Shown: positions 6,340 to 38,376, counted from the stretch's first letter. The stretch: DNA of 64,000 nt from Pseudomonadota bacterium (GCA_039799905.1 JBDLRP010000039.1:1-64000); one strand, 5' to 3'. The notes: a model not told the origin generated them from the sequence alone. Translations and numbers: made by a program.

Positions 6340-6345
6340 AGGGCC

Positions 6346-10124: not shown

Positions 10125-10148
10125 GCCGAAGCCGATAAATTTTATAAT

Positions 10149-15131: not shown

Positions 15132-17974
15132 GGATTGCCCTGTGGAGTGCTGGCATCTCGCGACGTTGGAAAGAGGCATTCAACGAGCTGATCGCGTGCC
15201 TGATCATATTGGCGGGAATTTCGGCTCCAGCGAAAGGCCGTCTCTGCCAATGGCATTTCGGCTCTGAGGCGACCGAAGCATTCAGGCGCGTTCATCTTCG
15301 CATATGCAATGTATTCGGCATCGAACGAGGCTTGCCGCCATAGTTTCATGCGCAGCGACGGCAACGGAGTTTCTTCTTTCAGTGCGAACTTTCCTTCGCG
15401 CGCAGGATAAAACAAAGTTCCGTCGCCGTTACCGGTGAAGTCCCAAAGAGATTGCCAGGGATCGACTGCCGGAGATTTTCTCCAGCTGTTGTTCACACTG
15501 TAATAAAGAACTCTCTGCAGATTATAGATCTCAGATATCCAAGGCCAAACACGAATATACGACGCGTTTCGCTCAATGACGAAGTCGGGTTCGCCGCTCG
15601 AAAATTCGGAACCGCAACCATGACTCATGCAGCTGACGTAGGCCCACAGCTGATGTTCCGGCGTCAGTGACGGGGGGCCCTCCCGTTCAAGTGTCTGCAG
15701 CAGCGGAGCGAAGATTCGAATGGAATCGAGCAAACTTTGCCAAGGATAGATTGTCACAAGCGCCGATACCTGTGGTGCCCCCTGTCGCAGGCTTTCGGTC
15801 ATTTTTCTCAGCTTATGGAACTCCTCCTGCTGGGGTTCATCCCACAGATAAACAAATGGCCGTCGCGACATGCGCTCCTGAAACTCCGCCTCATGAGGAT
15901 CGGCTGAGCGGACGTCAAGAAACTCCTGCCAGCGCATCCAGTACTTCAACCGCTCCTGTTCATCGGAGTGGTCGATGCGCGGGATATCAATTTCCGACCA
16001 CCAAGGAAGTTCACTGACGACCGTATTCAGATAAGACAATTGGGGCGAAGGATCGCGAGAAAGAAGAAAGTCTTGGTTGAGTTGCTCTTCTTCTTTCTTA
16101 AATGGATGCTTTATCCATGCTTTGAGCGGAAGAATCCGATGTGCGACCATTTCTTTGATGTATTTTTGTGTCAGCGCACCTTCACGAGAATCTGAACGGC
16201 CGAAATGTGCGAGCGATGCAAAATACGGAGTAAACTCGGCTGCAAGCGGCAAGGCCCACGGCTCACTCAGGGTGAAGGGCAGGATTCTCAGCGTCATGCT
16301 CCATCTGCGCACAGGCTCTGCACCGTGGTTGAGCTGTTGTCGGGGATGCATTGTGCTCTCAAAGTAGAGTGAAAGATCTTCAGGAAAAGCGTTCTCCGCA
16401 ACCGTCAGGTCGGCAAACAACCACTGTGCGTCGGCAAATTCAGGATTCGCACAGTCGAGAGAGTCTCGCAGCGGGACGAGCGCATCCACATAAGATCCCG
16501 TGCGTGCTCCCTCAAACGATGGGTTCTTCAGGTTGACTGTGCGACCCAAATACCATTGCACATCGACAAGTGAATCATCGGGAGCGCCGTGAAGGGTAGG
16601 AAGCGTGCCGCAAAAATCTTTATTTTCGAAAATGATCAGCCGCTTTTCTCCGGCGGCAAGGGAAATCACAAGATGCCCCTTAAAATCATCACTCACCAGA
16701 TATTCGGGCTTTTCCAAAGTTGAAGTGAGGCGCTGAACGCTCAGCGCAGACGAGGACGACGACAGGGCAAAATTGATGATTAAGGCGAGAAGATGAATCC
16801 ACGACCGATGTACAATTTTCACAGCCCGTGAATAGATATTCCTGTAATCTTGTGCCATTTTTTCGCTGCTGTGACGTATTCGGAACCTTTCTCGGCTCTC
16901 CCACGTCGAAGGTCGATTGCCCGAACTAGCCGCGGACTCTTCAAGAAACTTGATGAAAATTTGAACATCGATGGAATTTGATTCTCTCGGCGCAAAATGC
17001 ACATACGACCTGACAGACTGATGCCCATCAATATCTGTTAGAAGAGCCGGCAGACCAGCACCAATCGCCTCACAGACAGCGAGCGGCATGCCTTCTTCCT
17101 CTGACAGGGAAACAAATGCGTCGGAGGCAAACAACCAGTCCGAAGGATGATCGGTTGGTCCGACCAAGAGGACAGACTCCGCAAAATATGGACTATTCTG
17201 AAGAATGGGCAGGATACAATCGCGCATAAATCTTGGGTCGACGGGCCCGACAATCACAAGCTTCCATTGTTGTCTCACTGAATCTGGCAATTGCACCCAC
17301 GTTCTCAGTAAGCGCTCGTGGCCCTTCCCTGCAACAACGCGACCCAGCGACAGAAGCCAGCTTTTTTCGAAGTCACCGGCCTTAAAAGACAACATGCTCG
17401 CACCGTGACGCGCCATGAGCCGTGCACGTGCCTCAGACGGAGTAGCAAAGGCTTTTGCAAATTCGACTCCGTTGGCAACGACAAGAAGTTTGTCTTGGGG
17501 GATTCCGAGTTTTCTATATTGATGAGCAATCGATGGTGAAACTGTACAAATCGCTTTTGCTGCCGAGCAGAAGAGCTTTTCATAGAGGGAGTAGCGGCGG
17601 AGTCCTTTACGGAAGTGAACGAAGCTGTGCTGTGTATGAACGACTTTTACGCGCATAAAGCAGCACAGGGCGACGGCGACTCCATAGATAAGCGCGCCCA
17701 GATCGTGTGTATGGATAATGCGTATTTTCTCAGCGAGGATGATCTTTCGCAATGCAAGAACTGTCTTTGTGCAAAAACCGCGACCCTTTTGCAGAGCCGT
17801 GAATGAGACACCCGAATTTTCAAGTCGCCTGATGAGTTCCGGACTCAAGCCAGACCGCTCGTAGGCGGCAACCTGACAATCCACATCGACTGCCCTAAGT
17901 TCTTGAGCGAGCGTCACGACCATCCGCTCCAGCCCGCCCAAGGCTAAATATTGGGTGAGGATGAGAATCTTCAT
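15128..17974 (-). CDS. GT4 glycosyltransferase fused via a hydrophobic segment to a DUF4091/GH123-like glycoside hydrolase domain
   Basis: N-terminal GGLERM and EGMPLAVCEA motifs. C-terminal YLWDEP and GDGTLFYP...PSLRMKLWRQASFDAEY motifs. Confidence 0.72.
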   Translation of the reverse strand: MKILILTQYLALGGLERMVVTLAQELRAVDVDCQVAAYERSGLSPELIRRLENSGVSFTALQKGRGFCTKTVLALRKIILAEKIRIIHTHDLGALIYGVAVALCCFMRVKVVHTQHSFVHFRKGLRRYSLYEKLFCSAAKAICTVSPSIAHQYRKLGIPQDKLLVVANGVEFAKAFATPSEARARLMARHGASMLSFKAGDFEKSWLLSLGRVVAGKGHERLLRTWVQLPDSVRQQWKLVIVGPVDPRFMRDCILPILQNSPYFAESVLLVGPTDHPSDWLFASDAFVSLSEEEGMPLAVCEAIGAGLPALLTDIDGHQSVRSYVHFAPRESNSIDVQIFIKFLEESAASSGNRPSTWESRERFRIRHSSEKMAQDYRNIYSRAVKIVHRSWIHLLALIINFALSSSSSALSVQRLTSTLEKPEYLVSDDFKGHLVISLAAGEKRLIIFENKDFCGTLPTLHGAPDDSLVDVQWYLGRTVNLKNPSFEGARTGSYVDALVPLRDSLDCANPEFADAQWLFADLTVAENAFPEDLSLYFESTMHPRQQLNHGAEPVRRWSMTLRILPFTLSEPWALPLAAEFTPYFASLAHFGRSDSREGALTQKYIKEMVAHRILPLKAWIKHPFKKEEEQLNQDFLLSRDPSPQLSYLNTVVSELPWWSEIDIPRIDHSDEQERLKYWMRWQEFLDVRSADPHEAEFQERMSRRPFVYLWDEPQQEEFHKLRKMTESLRQGAPQVSALVTIYPWQSLLDSIRIFAPLLQTLEREGPPSLTPEHQLWAYVSCMSHGCGSEFSSGEPDFVIERNASYIRVWPWISEIYNLQRVLYYSVNNSWRKSPAVDPWQSLWDFTGNGDGTLFYPAREGKFALKEETPLPSLRMKLWRQASFDAEYIAYAKMNAPECFGRLRAEMPLAETAFRWSRNSRQYDQARDQLVECLFPTSRDASTPQGNP

Positions 17975-18720
17975 GTCACGACACCATCCTCTGGAATGAC
18001 TCGCACCACACGAGCAGGATTCCCTGCAAGAACACTGCGTGGCGGGTATTCACCGGCGAGCACAGTGCTTCCACTGGCGATCGTTGAACCTGAACCGATG
18101 CGTGCACCCTTCAGGATGGTCGTGTTGGCGCCAATCCAAACATCGTCGCCAATCAAGACAGGTGCACATGCCGGTGTCCAACGCGCCAGCAGAGTCTCAT
18201 CAGACTCAATTCTCTCGGAGCCAAAACGCGGATAGAACCTTCGGCACATCCGCTTGACCTGTTCTGCACGAACGATTGGATCTAAGGGATGAGAGTCATG
18301 GTCTTGAATGAACACATTCCAGCTCGTCAGACACCTTCTGCCAATCGACACACGCAACCGCGAGGAAATGCGACAGTCGCCGATGATGCTGCAATCACCG
18401 ACGTGAATTTCTCCTTCTCCAAGGGCCTCAAGACGCGCGTTCTCAAATACAATGCTGTGATCACCCAAAAAAATCCGCGCGCGTGCACCAGTCGTAGACA
18501 ATGCGCGAATGCGCTGAATCCTCACATTTTTTCCGCATCTCACAGACCCCCGATGAAGACCCGACACCTGCAGAACAAAATGTGTCAGCGAAAACATCGC
18601 AAAATTCCGGACCATTGAAGGTACTCTGAACAGATGCTCACGGAAGGCAATCTTTACCAGACGCGAAAATCGCTCACCGTCGGAACGACGATACTGGTTT
18701 GATGTATGATTCAGCTCCAT
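17971..18720 (-). CDS. Hexapeptide-repeat (left-handed beta-helix) acetyltransferase
   Basis: IGDDVWIGAN.TILKG..IG and LAGNPARVV motifs. Confidence 0.9.
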   Translation of the reverse strand: MELNHTSNQYRRSDGERFSRLVKIAFREHLFRVPSMVRNFAMFSLTHFVLQVSGLHRGSVRCGKNVRIQRIRALSTTGARARIFLGDHSIVFENARLEALGEGEIHVGDCSIIGDCRISSRLRVSIGRRCLTSWNVFIQDHDSHPLDPIVRAEQVKRMCRRFYPRFGSERIESDETLLARWTPACAPVLIGDDVWIGANTTILKGARIGSGSTIASGSTVLAGEYPPRSVLAGNPARVVRVIPEDGVVT

Positions 18721-19835
18721 TTGAAATCATCCTCAAGCTGACTTTTCCTGCCCGAAATTGTGAGCAGTGCATGCATTGAAGCCCTGAATGCCGGATTTTT
18801 GATGATTGCCAGCGCGATCGAAAGTGCGAAGAAAAATATGACGACAGGCCAAAGTATGCGACCGCGCACAATTGCGTGCTCAAAAGCTGCACTGAAGAGC
18901 GCTAAAATAAACAGAGTCACCGGAAGCGCCCAAATCAGTCGAAAGACTCGCCGCAACGAGACGACAAGAACGTGGGGAGACAACCGATGTGCGACTGGCG
19001 TCAGGAAGCGAATCCACTGCAGATTTCCCTGCACCATCCGCATGCGTGCGTTGGCCTCTTGGCTCTTTTGCCGCGGCGATGAATCAGTCACGACAAAGCC
19101 GCCCGCGTCGTTTGCTGCGTAAAGAATCTTCTGCAACGGGAACAAAACTCTCAACATTAGTGGCAGAGCAACATCATCGTTCAGCCAATTGCGCCCAGAG
19201 AGTGCTTTAAGAACAGCGACCAGTGACTCTCTTCTGTAAAAAACTGTCGCCCCATGAACAGAGACTGGACCACCCGATTTGTTTTCGATGGTTTTGAGAA
19301 ACGCCTCAAGAAGCCAGAGGCTCCGGCTGACGCGTCCTGCAGTTCCAACCCTGTATCCGGGGGCGAAGCAGGATAAGTTTTCAAGACACAGATAGGGTAG
19401 CGCATTTCTCAAGATTCGCTTGTCCCATATCGCTCCGGCATCGACAAATGCGACCCAGTCGGCACTCGAACAATGAACCAGTTCCTGCAAAACCCGCCAC
19501 TTACTACTGTAGGAAAAGCTGCGGATAGCGACCGCATAGCCGTCGGCATCGGAGACGGTGTCGTCTGTGCAGCTGTCCAAACCGACGAAAACGTTGACAC
19601 TCAGCTTCTGAAATATTTTTCGCGCTTCATCTTTTGCGCATTGAATGGACGCAAGAGTCTCCCTCAGACGATTCTTCTCGTTATGACAAGGAATGAGGAC
19701 ATCAAAAGAATTAACCTCAGTGAGCTGCTCCTCATCTTTTTCTTTGTTGCGAAAAAAATAGAAGGAAAAAAAAGGAAAAAACGGACAGGCGAGGATACCT
19801 AGAACTATGCTGATGAGTAGCAGAATCCACCACAT
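18711..19835 (-). CDS. Membrane glycosyltransferase family 2
   Basis: LIPCHNE, DSCTD, FVDAG, NDD and R.RMVQGN motifs, with N- and C-terminal TM helices. AGGAG RBS. Confidence 0.85.
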   Translation of the reverse strand: MWWILLLISIVLGILACPFFPFFSFYFFRNKEKDEEQLTEVNSFDVLIPCHNEKNRLRETLASIQCAKDEARKIFQKLSVNVFVGLDSCTDDTVSDADGYAVAIRSFSYSSKWRVLQELVHCSSADWVAFVDAGAIWDKRILRNALPYLCLENLSCFAPGYRVGTAGRVSRSLWLLEAFLKTIENKSGGPVSVHGATVFYRRESLVAVLKALSGRNWLNDDVALPLMLRVLFPLQKILYAANDAGGFVVTDSSPRQKSQEANARMRMVQGNLQWIRFLTPVAHRLSPHVLVVSLRRVFRLIWALPVTLFILALFSAAFEHAIVRGRILWPVVIFFFALSIALAIIKNPAFRASMHALLTISGRKSQLEDDFKWS

Positions 19836-19907
19836 GACATACTCCTGTTCCCGAGAATACAAGTTAATCTCGTCACCGGTGCCACACTTCGGATGCGAAA
19901 AGCTGAG

Positions 19908-21349: not shown

Positions 21350-22069
21350 TCAGTCCGGAACCACCATACCGTCCTTGATGCGGACCGTGCGGCGTGCCAG
21401 CTGCATGACCCGAGGGTCGTGAGTCGCGAATAAAAACGTTGTGGAGTGATCGCGGTTGAGTTTCTGCATAAGCTCGAGAATCTGATCACTCGTTTTGGAA
21501 TCAAGGTTCGCCGTTGGTTCGTCGGCGAGCACCAGCCGCGGTTGTGTGATGAGCGCGCGCGCAATGGCGACACGCTGGCGCTGTCCGCCGGAAAGCTCAT
21601 CGGGCTTGTGTGTCATAAAACGTTCCAGCCCGACTTCGGCGCACACAGCCCGCACGCGTTCGCGCAGATTGTTGCGGTCTTCCCGCTGCTCGCGGACAAG
21701 ACAAGGAAACTCGATATTTTCGACCACATTCAGAACAGGAATCAAATTGAAGTTCTGAAAAATGAAACCGATTTTGTAATTGCGGACTTCAGCAAGGTCA
21801 TTGAAATCACGATTGGACACATCGACTCCGTCGAGCATGTAGCGACCCGATGTCGCGCGATCGAGACAGCCGATGATGTTCAAAAGCGTTGTTTTGCCTG
21901 AGCCAGAGGGCCCGAGCACCACCGTGAATTCACCTTCGGCGACACTGAAGTCGACGCCGCGGAGCGCCTCGACAGTCGTTTTGCCGAGCTGATAAACTTT
22001 GCGCAGCCCGCTGATCTCGATGATGTTCTTCGCTGCTGCAGAGGTCGTGGCCGAGGTTGTCGTGGTCAT
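21350..22069 (-). CDS. ABC transporter ATP-binding protein (LolD/MacB-type)
   Basis: GPSGSGKT, LSGGQRQRVAIARAL and ADEPTANLD motifs. Confidence 0.95.
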   Translation of the reverse strand: MTTTTSATTSAAAKNIIEISGLRKVYQLGKTTVEALRGVDFSVAEGEFTVVLGPSGSGKTTLLNIIGCLDRATSGRYMLDGVDVSNRDFNDLAEVRNYKIGFIFQNFNLIPVLNVVENIEFPCLVREQREDRNNLRERVRAVCAEVGLERFMTHKPDELSGGQRQRVAIARALITQPRLVLADEPTANLDSKTSDQILELMQKLNRDHSTTFLFATHDPRVMQLARRTVRIKDGMVVPD

Positions 22070-22080
22070 GACTGGGTCCT

Positions 22081-23451
22081 TTAATAGTAGGCTTTGACTT
22101 CTAACCCAAGGCGGGACTTCACCGGATTGAGTTCATTTCCGCGCACTCTTCCGATTCCGGAAATCTCCGCACCGGACTCTTTTACCAAGTTGTAATCGGT
22201 GCTCGCAGAGAGAGTCACGGCGACCGACTGACTGGGAGTCCACTGAAAGACGGGCCCCTGAAAACCGGAATGATCGTGTGGGTTGTGCGCGATGGCCCAT
22301 GAAAGAAAAGCATCGTCGTTGAACTTGTAGCGCTGATAATTCAAAAACAAAGTGTTGCGCATGGCATTTTGTGCGCTCGGAGCGAACGTGGCCGATCGGC
22401 TCAAACGCGCTGCCGCGAATCCACGTTGCAGCCGGCTCTGCAGGTCAGCAACGCTGTCGCCGTCTGATTGGTAGAGATATTCGAAAACAAGCGACGATTC
22501 ATTGTCAAAGTCATAGCGCATGCCGACAAGTGAGCGGAAGAAAATGTGATCGGAATCCAAACGCGAAGTGCCATCGGGCAGCGGCCTGTCGCTTCCCTGC
22601 CGGGCAAGAACCTCGGCATGGGTTTCGAGCTGTTTGCTGATGGCGGTTGCAATCTGCGACCACGATGCGCCAGCACTGAGCGCCGACGCTTTTTGATTCT
22701 TAAAACGATCACTGTAGAAGGCAATCAAGTTGACGTCCGCCTCACCAACAAGGCTGTACCAGCGCAGGCCGGTCAGAGAGTGCATCCTGCGGACGCCATC
22801 GGGGTCACGCAGCACACCTGCATCGGTCGGCATTGTGTTTTTGTCTTCCAAAACTTCAGGAGCAAAAACCAGAGCAAAGGTTTGCTTCTCTTGGACATGC
22901 TCACCTTGCAGCAACCATGCACCGCGCCGTTCATAGGTCGGGTCAAGCGGATTCTTGGCCGGATTGAGCAGGTCGGTCGGGTTGGCGGCAAAACCGGTGC
23001 CCCACAAGACGCGCTTTTTGCCTGCGGTATATTGGAATCCCGTCGCAGGCTCGCCGTTCACATAGAGCTCATTCAACGCCAGCCGATAGGCGGGATTGTC
23101 GTCGCTTCCTTTCGAAGTGATCAACACCGCGCCTGTCTGTATGTTGCGTTTTTTGAAATTCCACGATTTGCGCGCAAAGACATCGACGTCAGCTTGCAGT
23201 CTGAGCAACGGCGAGAATTCGGTTTTGCCTGTCAGGTTCAAATCCAGCAGCGCATTTTGCGAGGCAACCTCTGCGGCAGGAATTTTCTTGTCGAGACGCT
23301 GCTCGCTGAATTCGCTCCGCAGCATGAAATAAGAGGTCCACGCAGACGATATACCGGAGGATTCATCCTGCGCAGAGGCAATCTGAGAACAAACAGCAAA
23401 CAAACCGGCCGACAAAATGACCGTTACACATCTGTGAGGTTTGCGGAGCAT
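22081..23451 (-). CDS. Putative outer-membrane beta-barrel protein associated with the ABC exporter
   Basis: Signal peptide, GKKRVLWG.G.A.NPTD motif, alternating beta-strand pattern, C-terminal LEVKAYY aromatic BAM-type signal. Confidence 0.7.
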   Translation of the reverse strand: MLRKPHRCVTVILSAGLFAVCSQIASAQDESSGISSAWTSYFMLRSEFSEQRLDKKIPAAEVASQNALLDLNLTGKTEFSPLLRLQADVDVFARKSWNFKKRNIQTGAVLITSKGSDDNPAYRLALNELYVNGEPATGFQYTAGKKRVLWGTGFAANPTDLLNPAKNPLDPTYERRGAWLLQGEHVQEKQTFALVFAPEVLEDKNTMPTDAGVLRDPDGVRRMHSLTGLRWYSLVGEADVNLIAFYSDRFKNQKASALSAGASWSQIATAISKQLETHAEVLARQGSDRPLPDGTSRLDSDHIFFRSLVGMRYDFDNESSLVFEYLYQSDGDSVADLQSRLQRGFAAARLSRSATFAPSAQNAMRNTLFLNYQRYKFNDDAFLSWAIAHNPHDHSGFQGPVFQWTPSQSVAVTLSASTDYNLVKESGAEISGIGRVRGNELNPVKSRLGLEVKAYY

Positions 23452-23486
23452 CGCGGTGTTACCTTCCTTCCGGAATGCGGTTGTCA

Positions 23487-24236
23487 TTATTTACCCAAGT
23501 CCGTCAGCGCAAAACGCTGGTCGGGAGTGCTGACGCCAACGTTCATGCTCTGCATGAGCAATTCCGTAGAACGCTCCTTGATAAGCTCGTTGCGCATGAT
23601 GACTTTGGCCGGACGCCGGTAGCCCTTGGAGAACTCTTTGAAATCGGAGAACTCAGCCGAACGGAGGATTTTTCCGCTCGTGCCGTAGTATTCGCCGCGC
23701 ACCGGCATTGCGTCCGACTTGCGCATCCAGAGCTTGACCACGTCGTAGGACGTGTTGGCATTCTTCGCCTTGAGCTCAACCAGATATTGCTCTGCATTCT
23801 CGGATTTTCCGAGTGTCGCCGCATAATCGGCTTTGTAGTTCACGCGCAGAACGTCGGCATTATTGAAGTCGCCGCCCTGAAATGAATCGCGGTTGGCAAT
23901 GCGTGTCGCGCGTTTGAGATTGGGCAGATAGACCCACGAGTTGTCTCCAACCCTGAGAACTTCCTGACCGGCGACGGCGGCTGGCCCCTTGAACCAGATG
24001 CGGAACTTCTCGGTTCCCTTTTTCACAAAGCGCATGTCGTAGGTCCGCGTGGTTCCGTCTTCGCGCTTGGCGGTCATCTTTGCCATCGATTCGTAATTTT
24101 CGGGCCCCATGATGGCATCATACTTTTCCAGCAGCGCGTCGGCAGACATCTCTGCAGCAACGGCCGACGACTCTACGGTAAACGACTGCACCGCAGCGAG
24201 TGAAAGGGAAATGGCCAAAAATCGGAGTTTCAACAT
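23487..24236 (-). CDS. Outer-membrane lipoprotein-sorting protein (LolA-like)
   Basis: Signal peptide and WVYLP..KR..RI....SFQGGDF..AD motif. Confidence 0.85.
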   Translation of the reverse strand: MLKLRFLAISLSLAAVQSFTVESSAVAAEMSADALLEKYDAIMGPENYESMAKMTAKREDGTTRTYDMRFVKKGTEKFRIWFKGPAAVAGQEVLRVGDNSWVYLPNLKRATRIANRDSFQGGDFNNADVLRVNYKADYAATLGKSENAEQYLVELKAKNANTSYDVVKLWMRKSDAMPVRGEYYGTSGKILRSAEFSDFKEFSKGYRRPAKVIMRNELIKERSTELLMQSMNVGVSTPDQRFALTDLGK

Positions 24237-24258
24237 CTGTCACCTCAACTGAATTTCA

Positions 24259-25527
24259 TTATGCGCGCAAGGCATCAACTGGGTTCATCATGGCAGCGCG
24301 CCGCGCCGGAAATATTCCCGCGATAGAAGAACACAACACAGCCACTGCAAAGGCGGCGGCCGAAAAGCCAAAAGTCAAAAATGGATGCAGCATTCCCCGC
24401 TCGTAATTTTCCGAGCCGAACGGGATGCCGATTTGATTGAGCACGATCGTGATCAGAACTCCCAGAAGAAGCCCGAGCATTCCGCCGACAACTCCCACAA
24501 AAACCGCCTCGGCGAAGAATATTGTCTGGATTTGGTGCCTGCGGATGCCCACCGAGAGCATCGTGCCGATTTCACGCGTGCGCTCAAACACAGCCATTGT
24601 CATGGTGTTTGCAATCACAAACAAAACAAGCACGAAAAGTATCAGGCTGACGATGCCGATCATGACCCGCTGGCGGAACAACACGTCACGCAAGAAAGGC
24701 TGAACGTCGCTCCAGGAGCTAACCTCGAATTCACGACCCAATTCTTCCTGGAGGCGCTTTTGTACGGCGTCCAGATCGTCGAGTTTGTGCAGCGAAACGG
24801 CCACCTCGGTGACTTTTCCCTCAAGGCCAAGAAGAGACTGAGCAACAGCCAGCGGCAGGGTGACAGCGCGTTTTTCTTCGAGCGGAAGAAGCGAGCGGCT
24901 CAGCCCTTTGACTTGAACGTCAACGGCATTCTGCCGGCCCTGCGGGCTTGCCCCCGACAGATTCAAAAACTCACCGGCCGGTTGCCCGGTCGCGGATTCT
25001 CCGTCGCCCGAAGGACCTGTGCCGCGCGGAGCAACATTCAAACTGCGCGCAAGTTCTTGCCCAACCAACGCATGCCCCGTGTCAGCCGCATCGAGCGGCT
25101 GGCTGCCTTCCGTGAGTGTGCCCAACCAGCGCGGACACACCAGCTGTTCGCGGGCAACATCCACGGCATTGCCAAAAAACAATGCCTGATTGCGGCCATT
25201 AGAAACGAGTCCGCGAAAGATGATTCGCCCTCCGGCTGCCTTGACGCCCTTGATCCGCTCGATGCGATCCAAGAGTTCGGGCGAATAATCAAAATTGAAT
25301 GTGAGCGGATTGAGTGAGACGTTGCTCAGATAACCGGTCTTGTGGATTTGCAGCGCACCGACTTTCACATTGACCGCATTTTCAATCGAAAAACGATAAA
25401 ATGCATTCGAGACGCTCGTGATGACCAGCACAACGGCAAGCCCGACGACAATCGACGAAAGAGTAAATAAACTTCTACGCCGGTTGCGAAACACGTTGCG
25501 GACGGCCACTTGAAATAAAATATTCAT
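24259..25527 (-). CDS. ABC transporter permease (FtsX/LolE-like)
   Basis: RNVFRNRRRS, ERTREIGTM and MNPVDALR motifs. Confidence 0.92.
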   Translation of the reverse strand: MNILFQVAVRNVFRNRRRSLFTLSSIVVGLAVVLVITSVSNAFYRFSIENAVNVKVGALQIHKTGYLSNVSLNPLTFNFDYSPELLDRIERIKGVKAAGGRIIFRGLVSNGRNQALFFGNAVDVAREQLVCPRWLGTLTEGSQPLDAADTGHALVGQELARSLNVAPRGTGPSGDGESATGQPAGEFLNLSGASPQGRQNAVDVQVKGLSRSLLPLEEKRAVTLPLAVAQSLLGLEGKVTEVAVSLHKLDDLDAVQKRLQEELGREFEVSSWSDVQPFLRDVLFRQRVMIGIVSLILFVLVLFVIANTMTMAVFERTREIGTMLSVGIRRHQIQTIFFAEAVFVGVVGGMLGLLLGVLITIVLNQIGIPFGSENYERGMLHPFLTFGFSAAAFAVAVLCSSIAGIFPARRAAMMNPVDALRA

Positions 25528-26810
25528 ACCGACGCCAGCGCCTCCACAGGGCGCATGCGCGATGCGCGATACGCAGGCCACAAGCTGACCACTGCCGAAC
25601 CCAGCGAGGTAAAGAGGAATGCCTTCACAAGAAACGCCTGAGTGAGAAAGGGATGCAGCATAAATTTAAGAGTTGAGCCCGGTGCGTTGATTGGAATACC
25701 AATACGCGCCGCGATACTGACGATGACGACGCCGATGGCGAGGCCGGTCAGCGCGCCGAGCGCGCCAATGAAGGCTCCCTCGAGCACAAACAGACTGAGA
25801 ATGTAGCCGCGCCTGATGCCCAGAGCCATCATGGTGCCGATTTCGCGCACACGCTCGAGCACGTTCATGAACATCGAATTGACAATCCCCAGCATGATGA
25901 CAAGCAGGAAGACCGCAGAAATGAAATCGAAGATGGTGTCGATGTTTTCCAAGAGGTCTTTGATAAAGGGAACAATTTCGTCCCAGCGGCTGACCTCGAA
26001 ATCGGGCCCGAGTGCGCTTTGCAATTGCTGCTGGACCGCGACGGCATGCGTCACGTCGTCGAGCCTGACGATGTACTCGGTGACCTGCCCTTCCATCTTG
26101 AGTAGATTTTGAATGGTCTTCAAAGGCGCAAGAGCAAGGCGCTTGTCGGTCGGTACTGCGCTGCCAAGCACTCCGGTGATCTGCACGGCTTCGCCGGAAA
26201 GAACACCGTCTTTGTCGGGTGACAACAAAACAGGCCATTGCTCTTTTGCCTGCTTGAGATTCGCCTCGATATTGTCAAGACCCAGCGGACCAGCGATGTC
26301 GCGGTGCACGACCATCGCTGTAGAATTCGCGTTCTCAAATACATTTCCGACTGTCAGCCATTCGTAATATTGCGACATGACCTTGCGATCGAGTTCCGGG
26401 TCGACGGCGTTGGCGCCAATGAAGGTTGTTTTGGGTTCGGAGGTCAGCAGTGCTTCCGCAGCTGACTGCACGTCTTCAGCCGCAGACAGCGAACCGCTGA
26501 ACTGGAGCCGCGGCGAAAGAGCAATCACATGCCGGACCGAGAGAATTTTTTCACGCAGCTCGGGAGTGTCGGCAAATGCGAGGTCAAGTGGATTGCTGAG
26601 TACGTTTTTAAGGTAACCGGCGCGATGGATTTGGATCATGCCTGTGGTGCCATACAGGGTTGCGGCCAACTGCGCCTGCCGCACTGAATTGACAAAACCG
26701 CGGATGAGGGTGAGCGCACAGAGACCGACGATCACCGCACCGAGTGCGAGAAGAGTTCGACGGCGGTTGCGAGCGAGGTTGCGAAGAGACATTAACAACA
26801 ACGGAGACAC
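25524..26810 (-). CDS. ABC transporter permease (FtsX/LolE-like)
   Basis: RNLARNRRRT, ERVREIGTM and RPVEAL motifs. GTG start. Confidence 0.92.
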   Translation of the reverse strand: MSPLLLMSLRNLARNRRRTLLALGAVIVGLCALTLIRGFVNSVRQAQLAATLYGTTGMIQIHRAGYLKNVLSNPLDLAFADTPELREKILSVRHVIALSPRLQFSGSLSAAEDVQSAAEALLTSEPKTTFIGANAVDPELDRKVMSQYYEWLTVGNVFENANSTAMVVHRDIAGPLGLDNIEANLKQAKEQWPVLLSPDKDGVLSGEAVQITGVLGSAVPTDKRLALAPLKTIQNLLKMEGQVTEYIVRLDDVTHAVAVQQQLQSALGPDFEVSRWDEIVPFIKDLLENIDTIFDFISAVFLLVIMLGIVNSMFMNVLERVREIGTMMALGIRRGYILSLFVLEGAFIGALGALTGLAIGVVIVSIAARIGIPINAPGSTLKFMLHPFLTQAFLVKAFLFTSLGSAVVSLWPAYRASRMRPVEALASV

Positions 26811-26955
26811 GTTTGTTTCCTCTATTCGCCCAACAGAGTGCGGCGACCCTACGACAATTGCACGACAAAGCCAACCTAAAAATTTTACCGTTGATTTTTA
26901 TCACGTTGATTGTTAGCTGCCCTCACAGGGCTGACATTTTTTTGGTGAGGTTTTC

Positions 26956-28059
26956 ATGCTGATCCATGCTGCAACTGCGTCTGCCAAACTGCGCGACCTG
27001 ACCAGCCGATTTACCGGTGTACGGCTCGCCACTCCCGATGATGCTCAAGCTCTTGCCCGCTTCATCAATGAAACATCTATGAACAACGGCAAACTACGCA
27101 TCGGTTTCAACCGCGGCGACGACTATTTTGCTCTTCTCCGCCTGCAGGGTGAAAAATTCTCTGCGCTGGTGTGCGAACAGGACGGCCAAATCGCCGGAGT
27201 TGGGGCACTCACGCTGCGTCAGGCGAGCGTGCGCAGCCGTAAAGTGACACTCGGCTACCTTCAGGATCTGCGCATGGCGGCGACCGTATCGCAGCGCACA
27301 CGGCAGAATTTCTATCAGTTTTTCTCAGAATTTGTGAGACTCTGCCCGCAGTTTGAAGAGTACGACAACTGTTCGCTCTTTGTTACCGCCATACTCGACG
27401 ACAATCGGGCGGCCAAAGCTGCCCTTTCACGCGCCGCATTTCCGCTCGAATACACGCGCCTTTCTCAGTACACCGCGCATATGTGGCCGAAAATTCCCAC
27501 CCTCGGCCGATTGACGGGAACAGCACGGATTGAGAACTCACAGGAAGACGAAGTCAGCGCGTTTTATTCGCAAGAGTTGGGCCGCCGCGCGTTCGACCTC
27601 ACCGCAGACGACCTCGCCCGCCTGAAAGAACACAGCACCAGCGTGATTGTGAAAGACGGCAACGCGATTGTTGCCTCATGTTTACTTGTTCAGACCAACA
27701 AGGAACGTGTGCTGCAGGCCGAACACACTGGTATCAATTTCAAGCTCAATGCGGCGGGCACCTTCATCACAGCTCTGCGCGTGGCAAAGGGCCTCGCACC
27801 GGAGCGTGCCACAACAGCAAAACAACAGCTTCTGGGGCTTGCCCTGCGCGAGTCCCGCAAACTCAACGGACTCTTCACCGGCTACATCGAAACAGCCAAC
27901 GACCCGCTGCGGATGAGTCAGCTTCAGCACTTGAGCAGCTATAAAACTCAGGGCTCGCTCTACCGCGTTTATCATCCGGAACACTCCGCGATCCCCGAAT
28001 TCAGCGCAGGCTTCCTGCGGCCTTCGCACGTCGCGCAATTCGACTGGATCTCGTCATGA
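26956..28059 (+). CDS. GNAT-fold acyltransferase-like protein
   Basis: VRLATPDDAQAL...RGDDYF...GYLQDLR pattern of an N-terminal GNAT domain; ILDDN..AK. Confidence 0.65.
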   Translation: MLIHAATASAKLRDLTSRFTGVRLATPDDAQALARFINETSMNNGKLRIGFNRGDDYFALLRLQGEKFSALVCEQDGQIAGVGALTLRQASVRSRKVTLGYLQDLRMAATVSQRTRQNFYQFFSEFVRLCPQFEEYDNCSLFVTAILDDNRAAKAALSRAAFPLEYTRLSQYTAHMWPKIPTLGRLTGTARIENSQEDEVSAFYSQELGRRAFDLTADDLARLKEHSTSVIVKDGNAIVASCLLVQTNKERVLQAEHTGINFKLNAAGTFITALRVAKGLAPERATTAKQQLLGLALRESRKLNGLFTGYIETANDPLRMSQLQHLSSYKTQGSLYRVYHPEHSAIPEFSAGFLRPSHVAQFDWISS

Positions 28060-29075
28060 AGAAGGACGCCCTCGGGGTTATTTTCAGAGTTGAAAAACGC
28101 TTGGGAAGAGGCGACCTATTCGAGATTATTTCGCATTTTTCTTCAGGAAAGTCGGAAACAACTGTGTTCCAGCACGAATACACCGACGGATTCGGAGCAC
28201 TGCTGAAAGAATCCGAAAAATGGTCCGGAGCGCAAATTACTTTGCCGCCGTTCAAGTTGGCGACCCGCTTTTCGCCGTCCTCAATCGCTTCGGCACTGAA
28301 GGGTCTCAAAGAGGACTTTTCAGCCGCTCAAACGCGCTGGAAGTCACTTGACGTAAATGCTCCCTATACACCTGATCATCTCGCTTGGCGGGTGTTTTCG
28401 CGCTCTGCAACCGAGCAGCTGCTCACAACATCTCGGCGGCTCGGAATCTCTGTGAACACACTCATTCTGACCGCCGTCAACCAAGCGGTCGCTGAACATT
28501 TACTGCATGAAAGCCAGCGCGAATGCCGCTGGCTGCTGCCCGTTAACATGCGCCGGAAACCAAACGAACTGCGTTCCATGGCAAACCATACAAGCTCGGT
28601 GGGCGTAACGCTCCACCGCGACGATTCTGCTGAACAGATTGAGGCCAACTACCGGCGTTCGATCAACAAATGGCATGCACTGTCTGCCGAAACCCTCGCG
28701 CAGTCGATCACTAAACTGGGCGAAGAACGCCTTTATCATCTTGCGCAAAAGCGCGGTTCAACCAACTTCCGCATTGGTTCATTCTCAAACCTTGGCATCT
28801 GGAATTTTCCGACCGCCGGTGTGGACGACCGCTGGCCGATGGCTATTACCATCACTCCACCAGCAGGCACCCCCTGTTTCCCCGTGGGTGTTGGAATCAT
28901 CACTTGGCAGGGGCACCTGTCACTGAGTCTGCGGTTGCACGCAGGCCTCATCAATCAAGATCCGCATCTGTCGGAATTTTTGCTCGGCGAATTCACCCGC
29001 CGCCTGACCCGCATGGTAGATTGTCCTCTTGAAACGTTGCGCTCCTCCGCAGCACCGGAGTCTGCGCCCAACTGA
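28056..29075 (+). CDS. CoA-dependent acyltransferase / condensation-domain-like protein
   Basis: HxxxDG motif (HEYTDG), SVNTLIL, PVNMR, NHTS and FSNLG motifs. ATGA coupling to the upstream gene. Confidence 0.65.
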   Translation: MKKDALGVIFRVEKRLGRGDLFEIISHFSSGKSETTVFQHEYTDGFGALLKESEKWSGAQITLPPFKLATRFSPSSIASALKGLKEDFSAAQTRWKSLDVNAPYTPDHLAWRVFSRSATEQLLTTSRRLGISVNTLILTAVNQAVAEHLLHESQRECRWLLPVNMRRKPNELRSMANHTSSVGVTLHRDDSAEQIEANYRRSINKWHALSAETLAQSITKLGEERLYHLAQKRGSTNFRIGSFSNLGIWNFPTAGVDDRWPMAITITPPAGTPCFPVGVGIITWQGHLSLSLRLHAGLINQDPHLSEFLLGEFTRRLTRMVDCPLETLRSSAAPESAPN

Positions 29076-29091
29076 GGTGCCAGAAGTCGCC

Positions 29092-29850
29092 ATGAGTGAA
29101 AAAAAGCGAATTCTTGAGGCCATCCGTATGCGGATGCGCAGGGATGGAATCACATATGCCAAGCTGGCCAGCAAACTTTCAGTGAGCGAAGTCAGCGTCA
29201 AACGCTACTTTTCCGAAGAGCGCCTGTCGCTCGACCTACTCGATGACGTTTGTCGTGCGCTGGGCGCAACACTCGATGAACTTCTCGCAGAGTTCAAGGC
29301 CGTCGCACATGTGCAGAAAGACACCTTTAACGAAGATCAGGAAAAAGCCCTTGCCGAGGATGAATTTCTCTTCGTGCTCTTTTTCATGGTCGCGCGCGGC
29401 TATTCGTTCGCCGCCATCGATGCGCGTTTTGAAAATAAGGAAACAGCGAAAATCATCAAAGCATTGCGCGATCTCGAAAATCTCCAGTTGATTGAATATC
29501 CGTCGAACAATGAGCTGCGCACGCTGGTGAGCAGCAACGCGCACATCCGTCCCGGCGGCTCGATGTGGAAAAAGTACAGTGCGGTGAGCATTCAGGAGTT
29601 TTTCAACAGCAATTTTCAGCGCGGCAATGAGTACTTCAAACTCTCGCTCGGATATCTGACCGAGGAAAACGCCAAGCAGCTCAAGAAAAAATTTGAACTC
29701 CTTGAGGACGAAATCAAAACCATGCTTGTGGTCGGACAGGTCACCGCAAAGGACGTTCAAAAGAAACAGTTCTACTGGATTGCCAAATGCTTCCGCCCGA
29801 TGGAGTCGTCCGTGCTTGAAGTGATTGCCGAGCGCAGCAAACTCATTTAA
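29092..29850 (+). CDS. XRE-type HTH transcriptional regulator with C-terminal domain
   Basis: ITYAKLASKLSVSEVSVKRYFS HTH followed by F.EDQEKALA conserved segment. Confidence 0.85.
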   Translation: MSEKKRILEAIRMRMRRDGITYAKLASKLSVSEVSVKRYFSEERLSLDLLDDVCRALGATLDELLAEFKAVAHVQKDTFNEDQEKALAEDEFLFVLFFMVARGYSFAAIDARFENKETAKIIKALRDLENLQLIEYPSNNELRTLVSSNAHIRPGGSMWKKYSAVSIQEFFNSNFQRGNEYFKLSLGYLTEENAKQLKKKFELLEDEIKTMLVVGQVTAKDVQKKQFYWIAKCFRPMESSVLEVIAERSKLI

Positions 29851-29878
29851 TCAACGCGCATAGGAAAGGGGCGACCAC

Positions 29879-30271
29879 ATGGATGTACTTTGGACAAGCG
29901 ATAACGTCGAAGAGCACTGCCGGACTCTGCTGGGAGCAGAGCTTTCGCCAGCCGCTGAGCTTTTTCCCCGCGTTGTTTCGGCAACGTACATTCAGATGAT
30001 GAATGGTGAGGACGGCCAAAACACTTGCTTCAACGTCGAAGAATACCGCGCCGCGGTGCGCCGCAGCCTGCCGGCCTCTTTGCCCGAAGTATTGCCCTTT
30101 TTCGTCAGGTCGGTCTGGAACAGGAAGTGGAATTTTGCAGACAACGCCGCTGAAATTCTCTCGCTGGCAGAGGTGTTCGTAGGCCTGCTCAACTCCAATT
30201 CCGGTACCCGTCTTTCCGCGCAAGAGCTCGTCTCCGAGTGCCAATCGTCGTTTGACCACTGGCAGGGCTGA
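29879..30271 (+). CDS. Hypothetical protein (130 aa)
   Basis: ORF with purine-rich RBS, co-oriented in the operon. Confidence 0.6.
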   Translation: MDVLWTSDNVEEHCRTLLGAELSPAAELFPRVVSATYIQMMNGEDGQNTCFNVEEYRAAVRRSLPASLPEVLPFFVRSVWNRKWNFADNAAEILSLAEVFVGLLNSNSGTRLSAQELVSECQSSFDHWQG

Positions 30272-30328
30272 GAGGGGACTCAAAGCCCCGAAAAATTCCG
30301 GCAGCGATTCCGCCTCATTGCACCACAG

Positions 30329-30347
30329 GGTATCAGTTTCCGATACC
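30329..30347. promoter_or_regulatory. Palindromic operator candidate GGTATC-N7-GATACC
   Basis: Inverted repeat ggtatcagtttccgatacc in the intergenic region downstream of the HTH regulator. Confidence 0.5.
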
Positions 30348-30417
30348 GACCAAATTCCCTCTCCCCTCTAAATGCATCGTTAGCTACTCAGCCAATGTAC
30401 TCGGGACAGAACGCCTT

Positions 30418-31146
30418 TTGCATCTCAAAAGCTTGTCCCTCAGACTCGGAATGAAATTTGACAGGAGACAAGCAATGTTCAGCTTTTTGGGCCGCGGACT
30501 CGTTGCGTTTTCGGATCTGACAAACGTGTTTCTGGGTGACGACAAACTGCATTTCAAGAGCCTCAAGACCGAGCGCGACTACTCGACGCTTCAACGCTCT
30601 TTTGAGGAAGCCGACGGCATCCGTCTGCCTGTCGAATATTTGAAACAAGGGCGCGCCTATGTGTGCTTCGACGACCAGCTCAAACCACAAGGCGGCTTTG
30701 CGCTGATCGACAAAGGGCCCTTCCGCTCTCTCGAGCAGATACCCGATGATGTTCTCAAGCCGGTTGAAACAGCCATGACCGAAATCACCGCCGTTTGCCT
30801 CAACCGCAGCAATGCACTACGGCGCACGCGATATTGGTCGTTTGTGGTCGGCCAAACCCTCTGCGGACACTCAGAGCGGATTGTTTACGCCGTGGACTCC
30901 GACAAAACCTCTCTGCGCGAGCAGGTTTTCAACCACATCCGCGTCCACACCCTTTATGAAGGACCCGTGAAGAAACTTGAGGGCATGGACGAAGAAGCCA
31001 TAGAGGCCGTGGAGCTGACGACAAAGTCGCACCTGACCAAAGGCTTTTTGAAGCTCGCCCTCAATGAAGCAGGCAAGATTAAGTCTGCACTGGAAAAACG
31101 CCAGCCAAAACTGCAGCGACTGAGCCGCCCGCCGGCGCACGCATAA
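30418..31146 (+). CDS. Hypothetical protein, possible GNAT/acyl-synthase fold
   Basis: Good codon usage; GGFALI..GPFRSL.QIP...EITAVCL pattern. True start may be ATG 30451 or 30475. Confidence 0.6.
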   Translation: MHLKSLSLRLGMKFDRRQAMFSFLGRGLVAFSDLTNVFLGDDKLHFKSLKTERDYSTLQRSFEEADGIRLPVEYLKQGRAYVCFDDQLKPQGGFALIDKGPFRSLEQIPDDVLKPVETAMTEITAVCLNRSNALRRTRYWSFVVGQTLCGHSERIVYAVDSDKTSLREQVFNHIRVHTLYEGPVKKLEGMDEEAIEAVELTTKSHLTKGFLKLALNEAGKIKSALEKRQPKLQRLSRPPAHA

Positions 31147-31165: not shown

Positions 31166-32764
<1,599 letters not shown>

Positions 32765-36181: not shown

Positions 36182-37102
36182 CTAAGCCGATAAAACCTTA
36201 AAAACATTCTCCCGATGCCATTTTAGGTACTCCGCTGCAGGGCGAGCCTCCTCGTCGGCAGGAACCTGAGCCAGCGACACCCCTGTTCGAATTTGATGAG
36301 ATTCATGACTCCAGCTGTTGGCGAGTCGGGAGACTTCGATTGTTTGATCGTGGTGGATAGTGAATATGCCAAGGTCGAATAGCTTATGATGCTGATAGCA
36401 GAGCGCCAAACCGTTGTTCACTTCACCAGGTCCACCCATGGCATGCCAGCGGATGTGCGCTGCCTCGACACCAATTTTCTTGTCGGCAAGGCTCAGACCA
36501 AAGCCACACAAAGCACACCGGTACTGGTAAGCAATGAGGACCTCTTGCCTGAACGACGCTGGTCGTGGGGCCTTGCTCACCTGCCAAGTGACAACCGTTG
36601 GGGCGCGCAGGGTTGCAGGGGCTGCATCTGCGAGCACAGTGAGTATTTCTTCAAAAATGGACTCGGGAAAATGTTTCGCGAGGATGTGATTGACGAGCCG
36701 CTCCGCGCACTGAGGGTTCTTTCTGAGGAATTGATAATCAGCCTTTGGAAAAGCCCCCCAAATACCTTCACGCCGTAAGAATGCTGCCGATGGCTCTATG
36801 TCGAAGGCGATATCCTCTTTCTTGCCTTGTCCCAGGATCCAGAGGTCGTCGTTCTTCAGGTAGAAAAAAGGAAATTCGGGGCGTGGCTTCCTGTTCCCAG
36901 CGATCTCCAACAGACTTCGCAGGCGGGCCTCTTCTTCAGCGAAAAGAATCTCACGTCTTGAACCGGCGGCAGCTTTGGTCAAGGCGAGAAGCAAAAGCAA
37001 TGGTTTGTGAGGCGCCCTGAGCCCATTGGCCGAGAATTGGCCAATAGCATCTATTCTTTGAATGAGGTCCTGCTCGTGTTCTGCTGCATTCATAGTTTGC
37101 AC
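36182..37102 (-). CDS. SBD-HNH endonuclease (putative phosphorothioate-dependent type IV restriction enzyme)
   Basis: N-terminal RAPHKPLLLL and PEFPFFYLKNDDLW motifs. C-terminal CALC...EAAHI....GG....NGLALC..HHKLFD HNH motif. Confidence 0.8.
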   Translation of the reverse strand: MQTMNAAEHEQDLIQRIDAIGQFSANGLRAPHKPLLLLLALTKAAAGSRREILFAEEEARLRSLLEIAGNRKPRPEFPFFYLKNDDLWILGQGKKEDIAFDIEPSAAFLRREGIWGAFPKADYQFLRKNPQCAERLVNHILAKHFPESIFEEILTVLADAAPATLRAPTVVTWQVSKAPRPASFRQEVLIAYQYRCALCGFGLSLADKKIGVEAAHIRWHAMGGPGEVNNGLALCYQHHKLFDLGIFTIHHDQTIEVSRLANSWSHESHQIRTGVSLAQVPADEEARPAAEYLKWHRENVFKVLSA

Positions 37103-37407
37103 TCAATTTATTTTTCTCGATCGTAACAGCAAAAGAGCAAGAGTGGGAGGCGGGGCAAAATACTGTGAAGAAAACGAGTCTTACAGGGAGTAAAATGTCA
37201 AATACGAAATCATCAGCGACGGCTTTGCAAAGCCTTTTGGCGAGTACTTTTTGATTTAGGAGACGTCGGTCTTGCTCATGTCGAATTCACGGAGTTTTGT
37301 CTTCTGTTCGGTTGCACTCTTACAGCAAACAGTCGAAGCGATTCTTAGCCAGAGAATTTTCGATCAATTGATCGAATTTCGGAAGCTATTCGATTTTTAC
37401 CTTGAGC

Positions 37408-38376
37408 CTATAAAAGCTTTTCGAGTTCCTCAGTGCTCAGTTTGAGCACCCGACAGACAACCGCCTTCTCTATTCCTTCGGCGATCATTGCGCGGGCAAC
37501 AGCAATTTTATGCTCTTCACGCCCTTCCTCACGCCCTTCCTCGCGGCCCCTCTTTAATGCTCCGCCCATTTCCAAGGCATGTGCGACACGCGCTTCATCG
37601 ATCGCACGCTGCTGCATAGCAAGCTTGTCATCTGCCGAATAACCTTCAACTTTCTTTTTGAGGTCTGAGAACATTGAGAATTCTCCTGCAACCCGCTCCC
37701 ACACGCCAACCGTCTGGGGCAACATAAAATCGACCCACCCCTGTAATATCGGATCTTCTCCTGAGCCGGAAGAGACGAGTTTGCCCAATTCGATGAAATG
37801 AAGCTTTGGGGATGTCGGATGAAGGATCTCCTTTTCAGCTGCCTGCCCACCCGTCTGGCAAAACTCAAAAGACAAGTGCGCTTGGGACCTTTCACGAAAG
37901 TATTCGCCTTCAATGAGAAATATAACAACGCATTCTGGAAGCAGCTGATAAGGGCTACCGGACTTCACAGACTCTGAGACAAGTCTCGACACGTAATAGA
38001 CCGCGCGCTGCTCCAGCTCCGTCGGCCTGCCACTTTGAATCTCGACGTCGACTATCACGCCATCGGCAGATTTCACGAGCAGATCAAGCCGGACTGCTTT
38101 CTCACCTTCTGCATTTGGAGCAACTTCGGTGTTGAGAAATTCAAGTTCGATGTATGGTCGAGCTGGGTTTAGGATTCTATTGAGCAAATCCAAAAGAGCG
38201 TCGGGAGAATCGGTCATCAACCTCTTAAAAAGGAGGTCGGCCGTTGGACGAATTAAACCCAGAGAATCGAAAACAGCGAGTGCCCGTTGCACAGCCACTG
38301 CAGCTGAAACGGGTGTTTCTGGTCTCATTGAGTTTTCTTCATTGTGTCTGGTCAAAATCGGTTTGTCGTGTGTCAT
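37408..38376 (-). CDS. Rpn family recombination-promoting nuclease / putative transposase (PD-(D/E)XK)
   Basis: D.LFK, RLDLLV...VDVEIQ, RAVYY and FIEL.K motifs, with C-terminal (REEG)n repeats. Start may be ATG 38328. Confidence 0.88.
   Translation of the reverse strand: MTHDKPILTRHNEENSMRPETPVSAAVAVQRALAVFDSLGLIRPTADLLFKRLMTDSPDALLDLLNRILNPARPYIELEFLNTEVAPNAEGEKAVRLDLLVKSADGVIVDVEIQSGRPTELEQRAVYYVSRLVSESVKSGSPYQLLPECVVIFLIEGEYFRERSQAHLSFEFCQTGGQAAEKEILHPTSPKLHFIELGKLVSSGSGEDPILQGWVDFMLPQTVGVWERVAGEFSMFSDLKKKVEGYSADDKLAMQQRAIDEARVAHALEMGGALKRGREEGREEGREEHKIAVARAMIAEGIEKAVVCRVLKLSTEELEKLL

Follow-up and report, generated by a model that had tools for sequence, protein, structure and literature searches.

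Two-chain ornithine and glycine amino lipids are made by OlsB/OlsA and GlsB/GlsA through N-acylation by an enzyme with a GCN5-related N-acetyltransferase (GNAT) fold and subsequent O-acylation. N-acyl amino acid synthase clusters, such as fee, tyzABC of M. tuberculosis (PMC10404671) and the stieleriacine cluster (PMC7293339), contain, according to the available parts of these sources, a FeeM/LuxI-fold N-acyltransferase and desaturating tailoring enzymes and have no non-ribosomal peptide synthetase (NRPS); the stieleriacine cluster also has transporter and regulator genes nearby (PMC7293339), as does the locus described here. LolA-like type VII ATP-binding cassette (ABC) transporters have been proposed, in the available text of PMC13078400, to move a non-polar ligand outward. 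Here, we analysed a 64,000-nucleotide stretch (the window) of a Pseudomonadota bacterium (GCA_039799905.1, JBDLRP010000039.1:1-64000), which is contig C39 of a 3.38-Mb genome (93.8% complete), and examined the gene cluster at positions 21350-31146, for which an earlier note had proposed a pathway that makes and secretes an acylated molecule (amino-lipid, signal or surfactant).

The cluster is of a known kind, i.e., an NRPS-free acyl amino acid/aminolipid cluster with a lipid exporter, and its set of enzymes was not found described. Synteny was surveyed in Oligoflexia and Bdellovibrionota (116 genomes of the group and a 301-genome Bdellovibrionota sample), and the results showed that the conserved unit is a trio of enzymes (a tandem GNAT, an HxxxDG condensation-fold enzyme and a FeeM-like GNAT), while the exporter is an interchangeable accessory. 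With a probability of roughly 55%, the trio synthesizes in the cytoplasm a multiply acylated amino-acid lipid, which is moved outward by a type VII ABC/LolA-like/barrel cassette. A literature search, made mostly without subscription papers or supplements, found no description of the trio, the tandem GNAT family or the link to a LolA-like cassette, and the available part of 10.1101/2025.01.14.632903 does not treat this cluster.

Folds and families of the three core enzymes

None of the three enzymes passes a Pfam cut-off, and neither the PF13444 GNAT nor the PF01553 acyltransferase model matches them. The first core gene (26956-28059, plus strand) encodes a 367-aa protein that is predicted to be a tandem GNAT with an N-myristoyltransferase (NMT)-like fold. 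Pfam and NCBIfam give no family for this protein, and the GNAT Pfam model touches only 5 of 100 relatives (E 0.01). The structure model (pLDDT 87) contains two GNAT folds in tandem, which agrees with the GNAT fold assigned by the earlier note, where Foldseek had been suggested as the check. All Foldseek rows listed for the model were NMTs (best E 9e-12, TM 0.57). In an exhaustive structure search (VIA), yeast NMT 2p6e ranked first (Z 20.4, root-mean-square deviation 4.2, 312 aligned, 9% identity), followed by a Cryptosporidium NMT (Z 19.5) and the bacterial tandem GNAT MAB_4324 (Z 18.3). Model residues 8-365 align with 2p6e residues 65-455, and the C-terminus of Eis, which is a second GNAT case of C-terminal carboxylate catalysis, also aligns with the end of the model. 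Residue 455 (Leu455) is the catalytic C-terminal residue of NMT according to the available parts of PMC4964394 and PMC7048800, the former being a 2016 review that describes such catalysis as unique to NMT among GNATs.

The tandem GNAT family comprises 2236 clusters at 50% identity (E 0.001). Position -5, counted from the C-terminus, is Glu or Asp in 143 of the 150 best relatives (motif F[ED]xxxx-stop) and in 30 of the 33 tandem GNATs from the loci (the exceptions being two Thr and one Asn), compared with 6/35 and 1/39 in the other two enzyme families used as controls. Among 100 aligned members, N150 is invariant, 95-99 keep Y101, D104, L105 and R106, and 90 have Thr or Ser at position 144. Such a position-fixed C-terminus fits a buried catalytic or structural role, the mechanism being inferred. 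The NMT Pfam models matched none of 100 members at E 0.01, a PDB sequence-profile search with the tandem GNAT returned no NMT at E 10, and PDB sequence-profile searches gave no match for either this protein or the FeeM-like one. Overall, the protein is like eukaryotic NMTs in its tandem GNAT fold (best in both fold searches), its alignment to the catalytic C-terminus and the strict placement of that terminus, but unlike them in its low identity (6-13%), the missing sequence-profile match, its bacterial small-molecule contexts and the lack of a detected substrate peptide.

Distant tandem GNATs adjoin GH3, Rieske, desaturase, P450, MMPL or ATP-grasp genes; the window's genome gave no match for the GH3, Rieske and P450 partner queries used. 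A second recurrent cluster type (L036, L165, L166, L189, L190 and L254) combines a tandem GNAT with a GH3 acyl-adenylating enzyme and mostly adds a Rieske oxygenase, another unnamed protein and desaturases, with an RnfD/FG-GAP/UnbV protein in L189 as well; our literature search found no description of this cluster type.

The second core gene (28056-29075, plus strand) is joined to the first by an ATGA overlap at 28056-28059, in keeping with the translational coupling of the GNAT and HxxxDG pair claimed earlier. Its 339-aa product is predicted to be a stand-alone, shortened condensation/CoA-acyltransferase-fold enzyme. The structure model (pLDDT 92) has the two-lobed fold, and in the motif HEYTDG the residues H40, D44 and G45 are invariant in 33 aligned sequences. 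Forty-eight of 51 locus proteins have HxxxDG, two have HxxxD[AS], and one is truncated at a contig end. A structure search placed the AzeD dehydratase on top (Z 23.4), with NRPS condensation domains (19-21; CDA C domain 19.8), TRI3 (19.4), WS/DGAT (17.6) and PapA5 (16.6) below it, and the profile scores fell short of their cut-offs (PapA_C, 23 bits vs 30; PapA5, 12.7 bits vs 396). The enzyme thus shares the HxxxDG motif and the two-lobed CoA-acyltransferase fold with AzeD, VibH, PapA5 and WS/DGAT (Z 12.8-23.4), but differs from free-standing condensation-fold enzymes in its length of 339 residues, the motif at residue 40, an identity of 10-18% and the absence of a carrier-protein or adenylation partner from the locus. 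The fold and motif that led the earlier note to call it an acyltransferase were confirmed by model and structure search, but the activity is less certain: besides acyl transfer, dehydration is possible, in which case the supposed acyltransferase would in fact be a dehydratase.

Lone HxxxDG relatives adjoin fatty-acid hydroxylases, desaturases, P450 and KAS III genes. Taken with the contexts of the distant tandem GNATs, this suggests that both families are reused parts of fatty-acyl chemistry. A second HxxxDG copy of genome G006 (L062:9210-13181) is followed by a major facilitator superfamily (MFS) transporter and faces an AurF-like di-iron enzyme. Distant HxxxDG relatives at L064:5468-10299 and L066:1-4155 lie by a serine palmitoyltransferase (SPT)-like aminotransferase and a short-chain dehydrogenase/reductase (SDR), possibly for sphingolipid tailoring.

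The third core gene (30475-31146, plus strand) encodes a 223-aa single GNAT that resembles FeeM/N-acyl amino acid synthases by profile match and carries an invariant Glu. Alignment of its family profile with a PF21926 profile by hhalign gave 87.5% (E 3.6e-6, 99 columns, invariant Glu in register), the PF21926 comparison profile having been built from 11 local matches of putative function; two controls gave 19.5% and 0.06%. The FeeM model PF21926 of Pfam itself matched none of 37 and none of 22 family members with E up to 1, and there was no LuxI match either. The Atlas lead for the protein was GNAT (0.95). The putative third acyltransferase-fold gene of the earlier note can thus be specified as FeeM-like, and its start is ATG 30475 instead of 30418, as judged from the ribosome-binding site and homologue starts. 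In contrast to fee-type clusters, the synthase-like gene here lies below the Pfam FeeM thresholds, has as its partners a tandem GNAT of NMT-like fold and a free HxxxDG enzyme, and is accompanied by no ThiF cyclase or flavin oxidase. FeeM-like genes also stand alone in several Oligoflexia, and that of G019 is fused to a fatty-acid desaturase. For each enzyme of the trio, one close homologue carries the source label Silvanigrellaceae, which makes it most likely that the window's genome belongs to this family (Oligoflexia).

The exporter cassette and its linkage to the trio

The five exporter genes were all found where the earlier note had placed them, on the minus strand: a LolD/MacB-like ABC ATPase (21350-22069; ABC_tran E 8e-33), a predicted outer-membrane beta-barrel of 468 aa (22081-23487), a LolA-like periplasmic carrier of PF17131 (23487-24236; Pfam E 2e-41), and permeases 2 (24259-25527) and 1 (25524-26810). 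Both permeases have FtsX and MacB periplasmic core (MacB_PCD) domains and four hydrophobic segments each; the start of permease 2 overlaps the stop of permease 1, which begins with GTG. FtsX + MacB_PCD permeases with four membrane segments, an ATPase and a PF17131 carrier together identify a type VII (MacB-like) ABC exporter with a LolA-like carrier. The carrier's PDB relatives are 3buu (E 8e-24), 3bk5 and 9tp6. The barrel candidate has no family in Pfam or NCBIfam; its Atlas neighbours are hypothetical, it shows a feature similarity of 0.96 to a cluster in which 41% of the proteins carry DUF1302 (a lead only), its structure reaches TM 0.78 to a 'Porin family protein' (Atlas), and the C-terminal residue is aromatic in 14 of 15 aligned relatives.

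The cassette is like LolCDE-LolA(B), the PF17131 proteins 3buu and 3bk5 and, from the available text of PMC13078400, Borrelia BBJ23-29 in having two MacB-type permeases, a LolD-like ATPase, a LolA-fold carrier and an outer-membrane partner. Unlike Lol systems, however, its parts score below the LolC/E, LolD and LolA equivalog cut-offs of NCBIfam (the ATPase's best match is LolD, with 232 bits vs 308), a DUF1302-like barrel instead of an Omp85 protein or LolB occupies LolB's place, and the cassette is tied to biosynthetic genes.

The divergent intergenic region (26811-26955) is 145 bp long, which is correct as the earlier note had it because the GTG start at 26810 is kept in the genus (11 loci). 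Its length (129-145 bp in 11 same-genus loci) and the TTG..TA-like motifs conserved on both strands in these loci make back-to-back promoters probable. The shared promoter of the earlier note found no support in scans: a consensus promoter scan found 3 sites over the whole region vs 3.7 expected and none in the gap, and a combined promoter and terminator scan gave no excess over shuffled sequence. In two RNA-library runs of one study, the FeeM-like gene and parts of the exporter were covered only by short contigs of identical sequence, similar pieces occurred outside the cluster, and no contig covered the two coupled enzymes.

Between the coupled pair and the FeeM-like gene lie a Cro/C1-type helix-turn-helix (HTH) regulator (29092-29850, plus strand; HTH_26 E 5e-08) and a 130-aa orphan (29879-30271, plus strand) that matches none of the families searched in Pfam and NCBIfam. 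The presence of these genes and of the third enzyme after the pair had been predicted correctly, but the starts of two required correction (ATG 29092 for the HTH gene and 30475, as above). Both intervening genes are accessory, each being found in 4 of 12 same-genus loci; the HTH gene also occurs in G057 and G070 (42%), is absent from all 14 distant trio loci described below, and, at a second locus each of G007 (L167:6613-8212) and G005 (L168:1093-2618), forms a stand-alone pair with a FeeM-like gene. The HTH gene thus travels with the FeeM-like gene.

The tandem GNAT was matched in 11 of 12 same-genus genomes, giving 12 loci, and the HxxxDG gene follows it in all 12. The FeeM-like gene lies downstream in nine; two loci are cut, and one has it on another contig. 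The permeases are divergently upstream in 10 of the 11 informative loci; the eleventh has an SDR there, and the twelfth locus ends 46 bp upstream. The ATPase is 87-92% identical across same-genus loci. These loci represent one inherited arrangement, not independent events.

Among the 116 genomes, matches were found for the HxxxDG enzyme in 19, the tandem GNAT in 35, the FeeM-like family in 25 and LolA-like proteins in 89. Three families of Oligoflexia retain the trio, with differing gene order. It is accompanied by a desaturase in G019 (fused), G057 and G070 (adjacent), stands behind RND and TolC genes in G088, and in G084 the FeeM-like, tandem GNAT and RND genes appear split over two contigs. 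The window's LolA clade (>50% identity) occurs in 15 of 116 genomes, 13 of which carry the trio. Matches to the G057 desaturase were found in four of the 116 genomes, all of them trio carriers and one being the window's genome, where C41:149234-150139 encodes a desaturase that is 46% identical to the trio-linked one, is cut by the contig end and is likely an unlinked tailoring gene.

In the 301-genome sample, the HxxxDG family was present in 35 genomes (41 matches, examined as 39 loci). The tandem GNAT was found in 16 of these loci and the complete trio in 14; type VII permeases lie near 5 of the 23 loci that have no tandem GNAT. A LolA-type cassette accompanies 4 of the 14 distant trios (G308, G395, G329 and G342). 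Three of these share the order FeeM-like gene, LolA, permease, permease, ATPase, barrel, tandem GNAT and HxxxDG, and the fourth has the cassette downstream. Two desaturases and MacAB-TolC lie by the trio of G347, two desaturases also occur in G386, and MFS genes stand beside three related loci. Pattern scans yielded seven metagenome and three genome loci. In a 33-row tree, trio-linked LolA proteins fall into three separate supported clades (99/97, 100/98 and 100/100), a result that rests on branch support in a tree with two long branches and that points to repeated recruitment. Overall, the core is the three-gene set including the FeeM-like gene, rather than the GNAT and HxxxDG pair of the earlier note. 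The exporter-acyltransferase linkage that the note had claimed is seen in the genus and, with LolA proteins from two other clades, at distant loci as well, but not throughout, as detailed in the next section.

Several further LolA-like genes were observed. The window's genome has four in all; the other three, with exporter-like neighbours, are at C21 42491-43306, C32 115878-116657 and C34 80398-81171, and the C34 carrier groups in the tree with the trio-linked carrier of G342. In four genomes (L279-L282), a LolA-like and a barrel-like gene lie inside an ExbBD-type locus with no ABC parts. Fusions of ~1040-1130 aa with a LolA-like domain, followed by a barrel-like gene, occur at L283:7477-10611, L284:8629-11751 and L285:7033-10413, two of them with an MMPL-like match.

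The proposed pathway and alternative explanations

Because both folds hold and the third gene is FeeM-like, the NRPS-independent acyl-transfer pathway of the earlier note is supported. In this pathway, acyl donors would be the cell's own fatty-acyl thioesters. The FeeM-like GNAT would join a fatty acid from acyl carrier protein (ACP) to an amino acid, after which the HxxxDG enzyme would esterify a hydroxyl with a second chain, and the NMT-like tandem GNAT may make a further amide on a free amine with its presumably buried C-terminal carboxylate as the base; the chain might optionally be tailored by desaturases or hydroxylases. The product would then arrive in the inner membrane's outer leaflet through a step that is not encoded here, be extracted by the type VII ABC transporter, ferried by the LolA-like protein and received by the barrel, and thus arrive in the outer membrane or at the surface. 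Predicted folds, motifs, linkage and distribution are computed or observed, while the product, donors, step order and cargo are our proposal. Type VII transporters act from the periplasmic side, so a step for crossing the inner membrane is missing from the cluster; the MFS genes beside three related loci are candidates for it. The outward direction is assigned because the type VII family is associated with export in the available text of PMC13078400. GNAT N-acylation followed by O-acylation likens this scheme to ornithine and glycine lipid synthesis, but unlike in OlsB/OlsA, the ester step would be catalysed by a condensation-fold HxxxDG enzyme, not by a PlsC-family one, and the scheme has a third transferase and an exporter besides. 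The logic also follows that of the N-acyl amino acid clusters (PMC10404671, PMC7293339). Separate OlsB-like and PlsC genes were found at a G057 locus, and an OlsB-like match lies on contig C2 of the window's genome. The trio enzymes have no hydrophobic segment above threshold.

A sphingolipid product was also considered, owing to the distant HxxxDG relatives by SPT-like and SDR genes and an aminotransferase supposedly beside the ATPase. It was dropped because the aminotransferase, at 216-1427, lies far from the cluster and there is no SPT-like match: the window's genome (93.8% complete) gave none at E 1e-6 with a single G100 SPT-like query. A peptide precursor as acyl acceptor was likewise rejected, since no conserved Met-Gly small ORF was found near the 15 loci examined (3 scattered chance ORFs).

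Several observations weigh against the proposed lipid synthesis and export. The enzymes are 6-18% identical to every solved structure, so the folds do not fix the chemistry; the best match of the HxxxDG model is a dehydratase (AzeD); the cluster lacks an acyl-activating enzyme, an ACP and a flippase; and the desaturase was not found in any of the nine other same-genus genomes. Unlinking of exporter and acyltransferases, which the earlier note had named beforehand as the outcome that would count against it, was observed in part. One same-genus copy has an SDR upstream in place of the exporter, nine of the 14 distant trio loci show no exporter in the fetched 16-21 kb (~8 kb reach), and in G019, G057 and G070 the orthologous exporter, of the same clade as the window's, is on a contig other than that of the trio. 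Moreover, G017 (92% complete) and G074 (83%) have this clade and no HxxxDG match, in four exporter-less trio genomes that were checked the LolA-like gene belongs to an ExbBD-type locus lacking both permease and ATPase, no LolA-like match was obtained in G122 (a genome of unknown completeness), and LolA-like genes are common in any case (89/116 genomes).

A question raised from these findings is whether the trio makes an acyl lipid while the cassette, with lipoproteins or some other lipid as its cargo, owes its position beside the trio to history alone. The unlinked exporters of G019, G057 and G070, the nine distant loci with none nearby, the exporter clade of G017 and G074, the abundance of LolA-like genes and the single inherited event behind the same-genus loci would all fit such an explanation. 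It nevertheless appears rather unlikely, given that the LolA proteins linked to the trio come from three separate clades, one of which is placed between trio genes on the same strand, and that other exporters (RND-TolC and MacAB-TolC) hold the same position. By a rough estimate, under the assumptions of independence and of two cassettes in every 3.5 Mb, chance adjacency is ~1% per locus, so that linkage in as few as 2 of 7 lineages would already have a P of about 0.002. The same efflux systems replacing the cassette in other loci also speak against an inward route, in which the locus would serve for the uptake and remodelling of external lipids with the barrel and carrier working inward. The barrel resembles DUF1302, and DUF1302/DUF1329 genes are needed for growth of Pseudomonas putida on fatty esters (10.1101/2020.07.04.188060, available in part). 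As type VII ABC transporters are associated with export (available text of PMC13078400) and the window's cluster has no hydrolase or acyl-CoA ligase, we regard uptake as highly improbable.

The product might instead be an N-acyl amino acid derivative that acts as a diffusible signal or as an antagonist, made by the FeeM/LuxI-like enzyme, sensed or controlled by the HTH protein, and dehydrated or cyclised by the HxxxDG enzyme. The lone HTH and FeeM-like pairs of G005 and G007, the solitary FeeM-like genes of several Oligoflexia, the top rank of AzeD and the described N-acyl tyrosine clusters with desaturases (available parts of PMC7293339 and PMC10404671) agree with this. The HTH gene, however, is missing in 8 of 12 same-genus loci and from every one of the 14 distant trios, Pfam gave neither a LuxI nor a FeeM match with E up to 1, and a small diffusible signal would presumably not need a LolA-like carrier, which makes this explanation improbable. 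Still more doubtful is the acylation of a protein or peptide N-terminus by the NMT-like enzyme, followed by export of the acylated protein through the Lol-like cassette as a second lipoprotein route. It would account for NMT as the best fold match, the alignment reaching catalytic Leu455 (available parts of PMC4964394 and PMC7048800), the fixed C-terminus of the family and the resemblance to LolCDE-LolA, but the lack of a conserved Met-Gly small ORF near the 15 loci, the relatives beside GH3, Rieske, desaturase, P450 and ATP-grasp small-molecule enzymes, and a bacterial tandem GNAT (MAB_4324, 18.3) only 2 Z below NMT argue against it. There is accordingly only a slim chance that Bdellovibrionota have a large NMT-fold family with a C-terminal carboxylate base that N-acylates a protein or peptide here for delivery to the surface by the cassette; if true, lipoproteins would have a route that does not depend on Lgt/Lsp/Lnt, and eukaryotic N-myristoylation would have a counterpart in bacteria.

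Surrounding genes and significance of the module

An ABC-F ATPase (31166-32764), 88-99% identical in same-genus loci, converges on the cluster as a housekeeping neighbour. On the other side, a Wzy-type exopolysaccharide cluster (2272-19862; sugar transferase, GT4 and GT2 enzymes, Wzy_C, Poly_export and deacetylase) sits between the aminotransferase (216-1427) and the exporter, and it looks like a lineage-specific insertion because in six same-genus loci the aminotransferase is at most one gene from the ATPase. HNH endonuclease and PD-(D/E)XK transposase-family genes were observed at 36182-38376, and an ORF on the minus strand (50906-52576) has repeated Arg/Pro/Glu-rich peptide units near its start.

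These results define a recurrent biosynthetic module, made of three protein families for which Pfam has no named model, in a phylum with little-studied lipids and small molecules. The cluster (~4 kb) is within reach of expression and lipidomics. The tandem GNAT family represents a testable bacterial look-alike of N-myristoyltransferase, and the module offers a candidate cargo for the PF17131 LolA-like cassettes, which are present in 89 of 116 genomes and have so far been without a known substrate.

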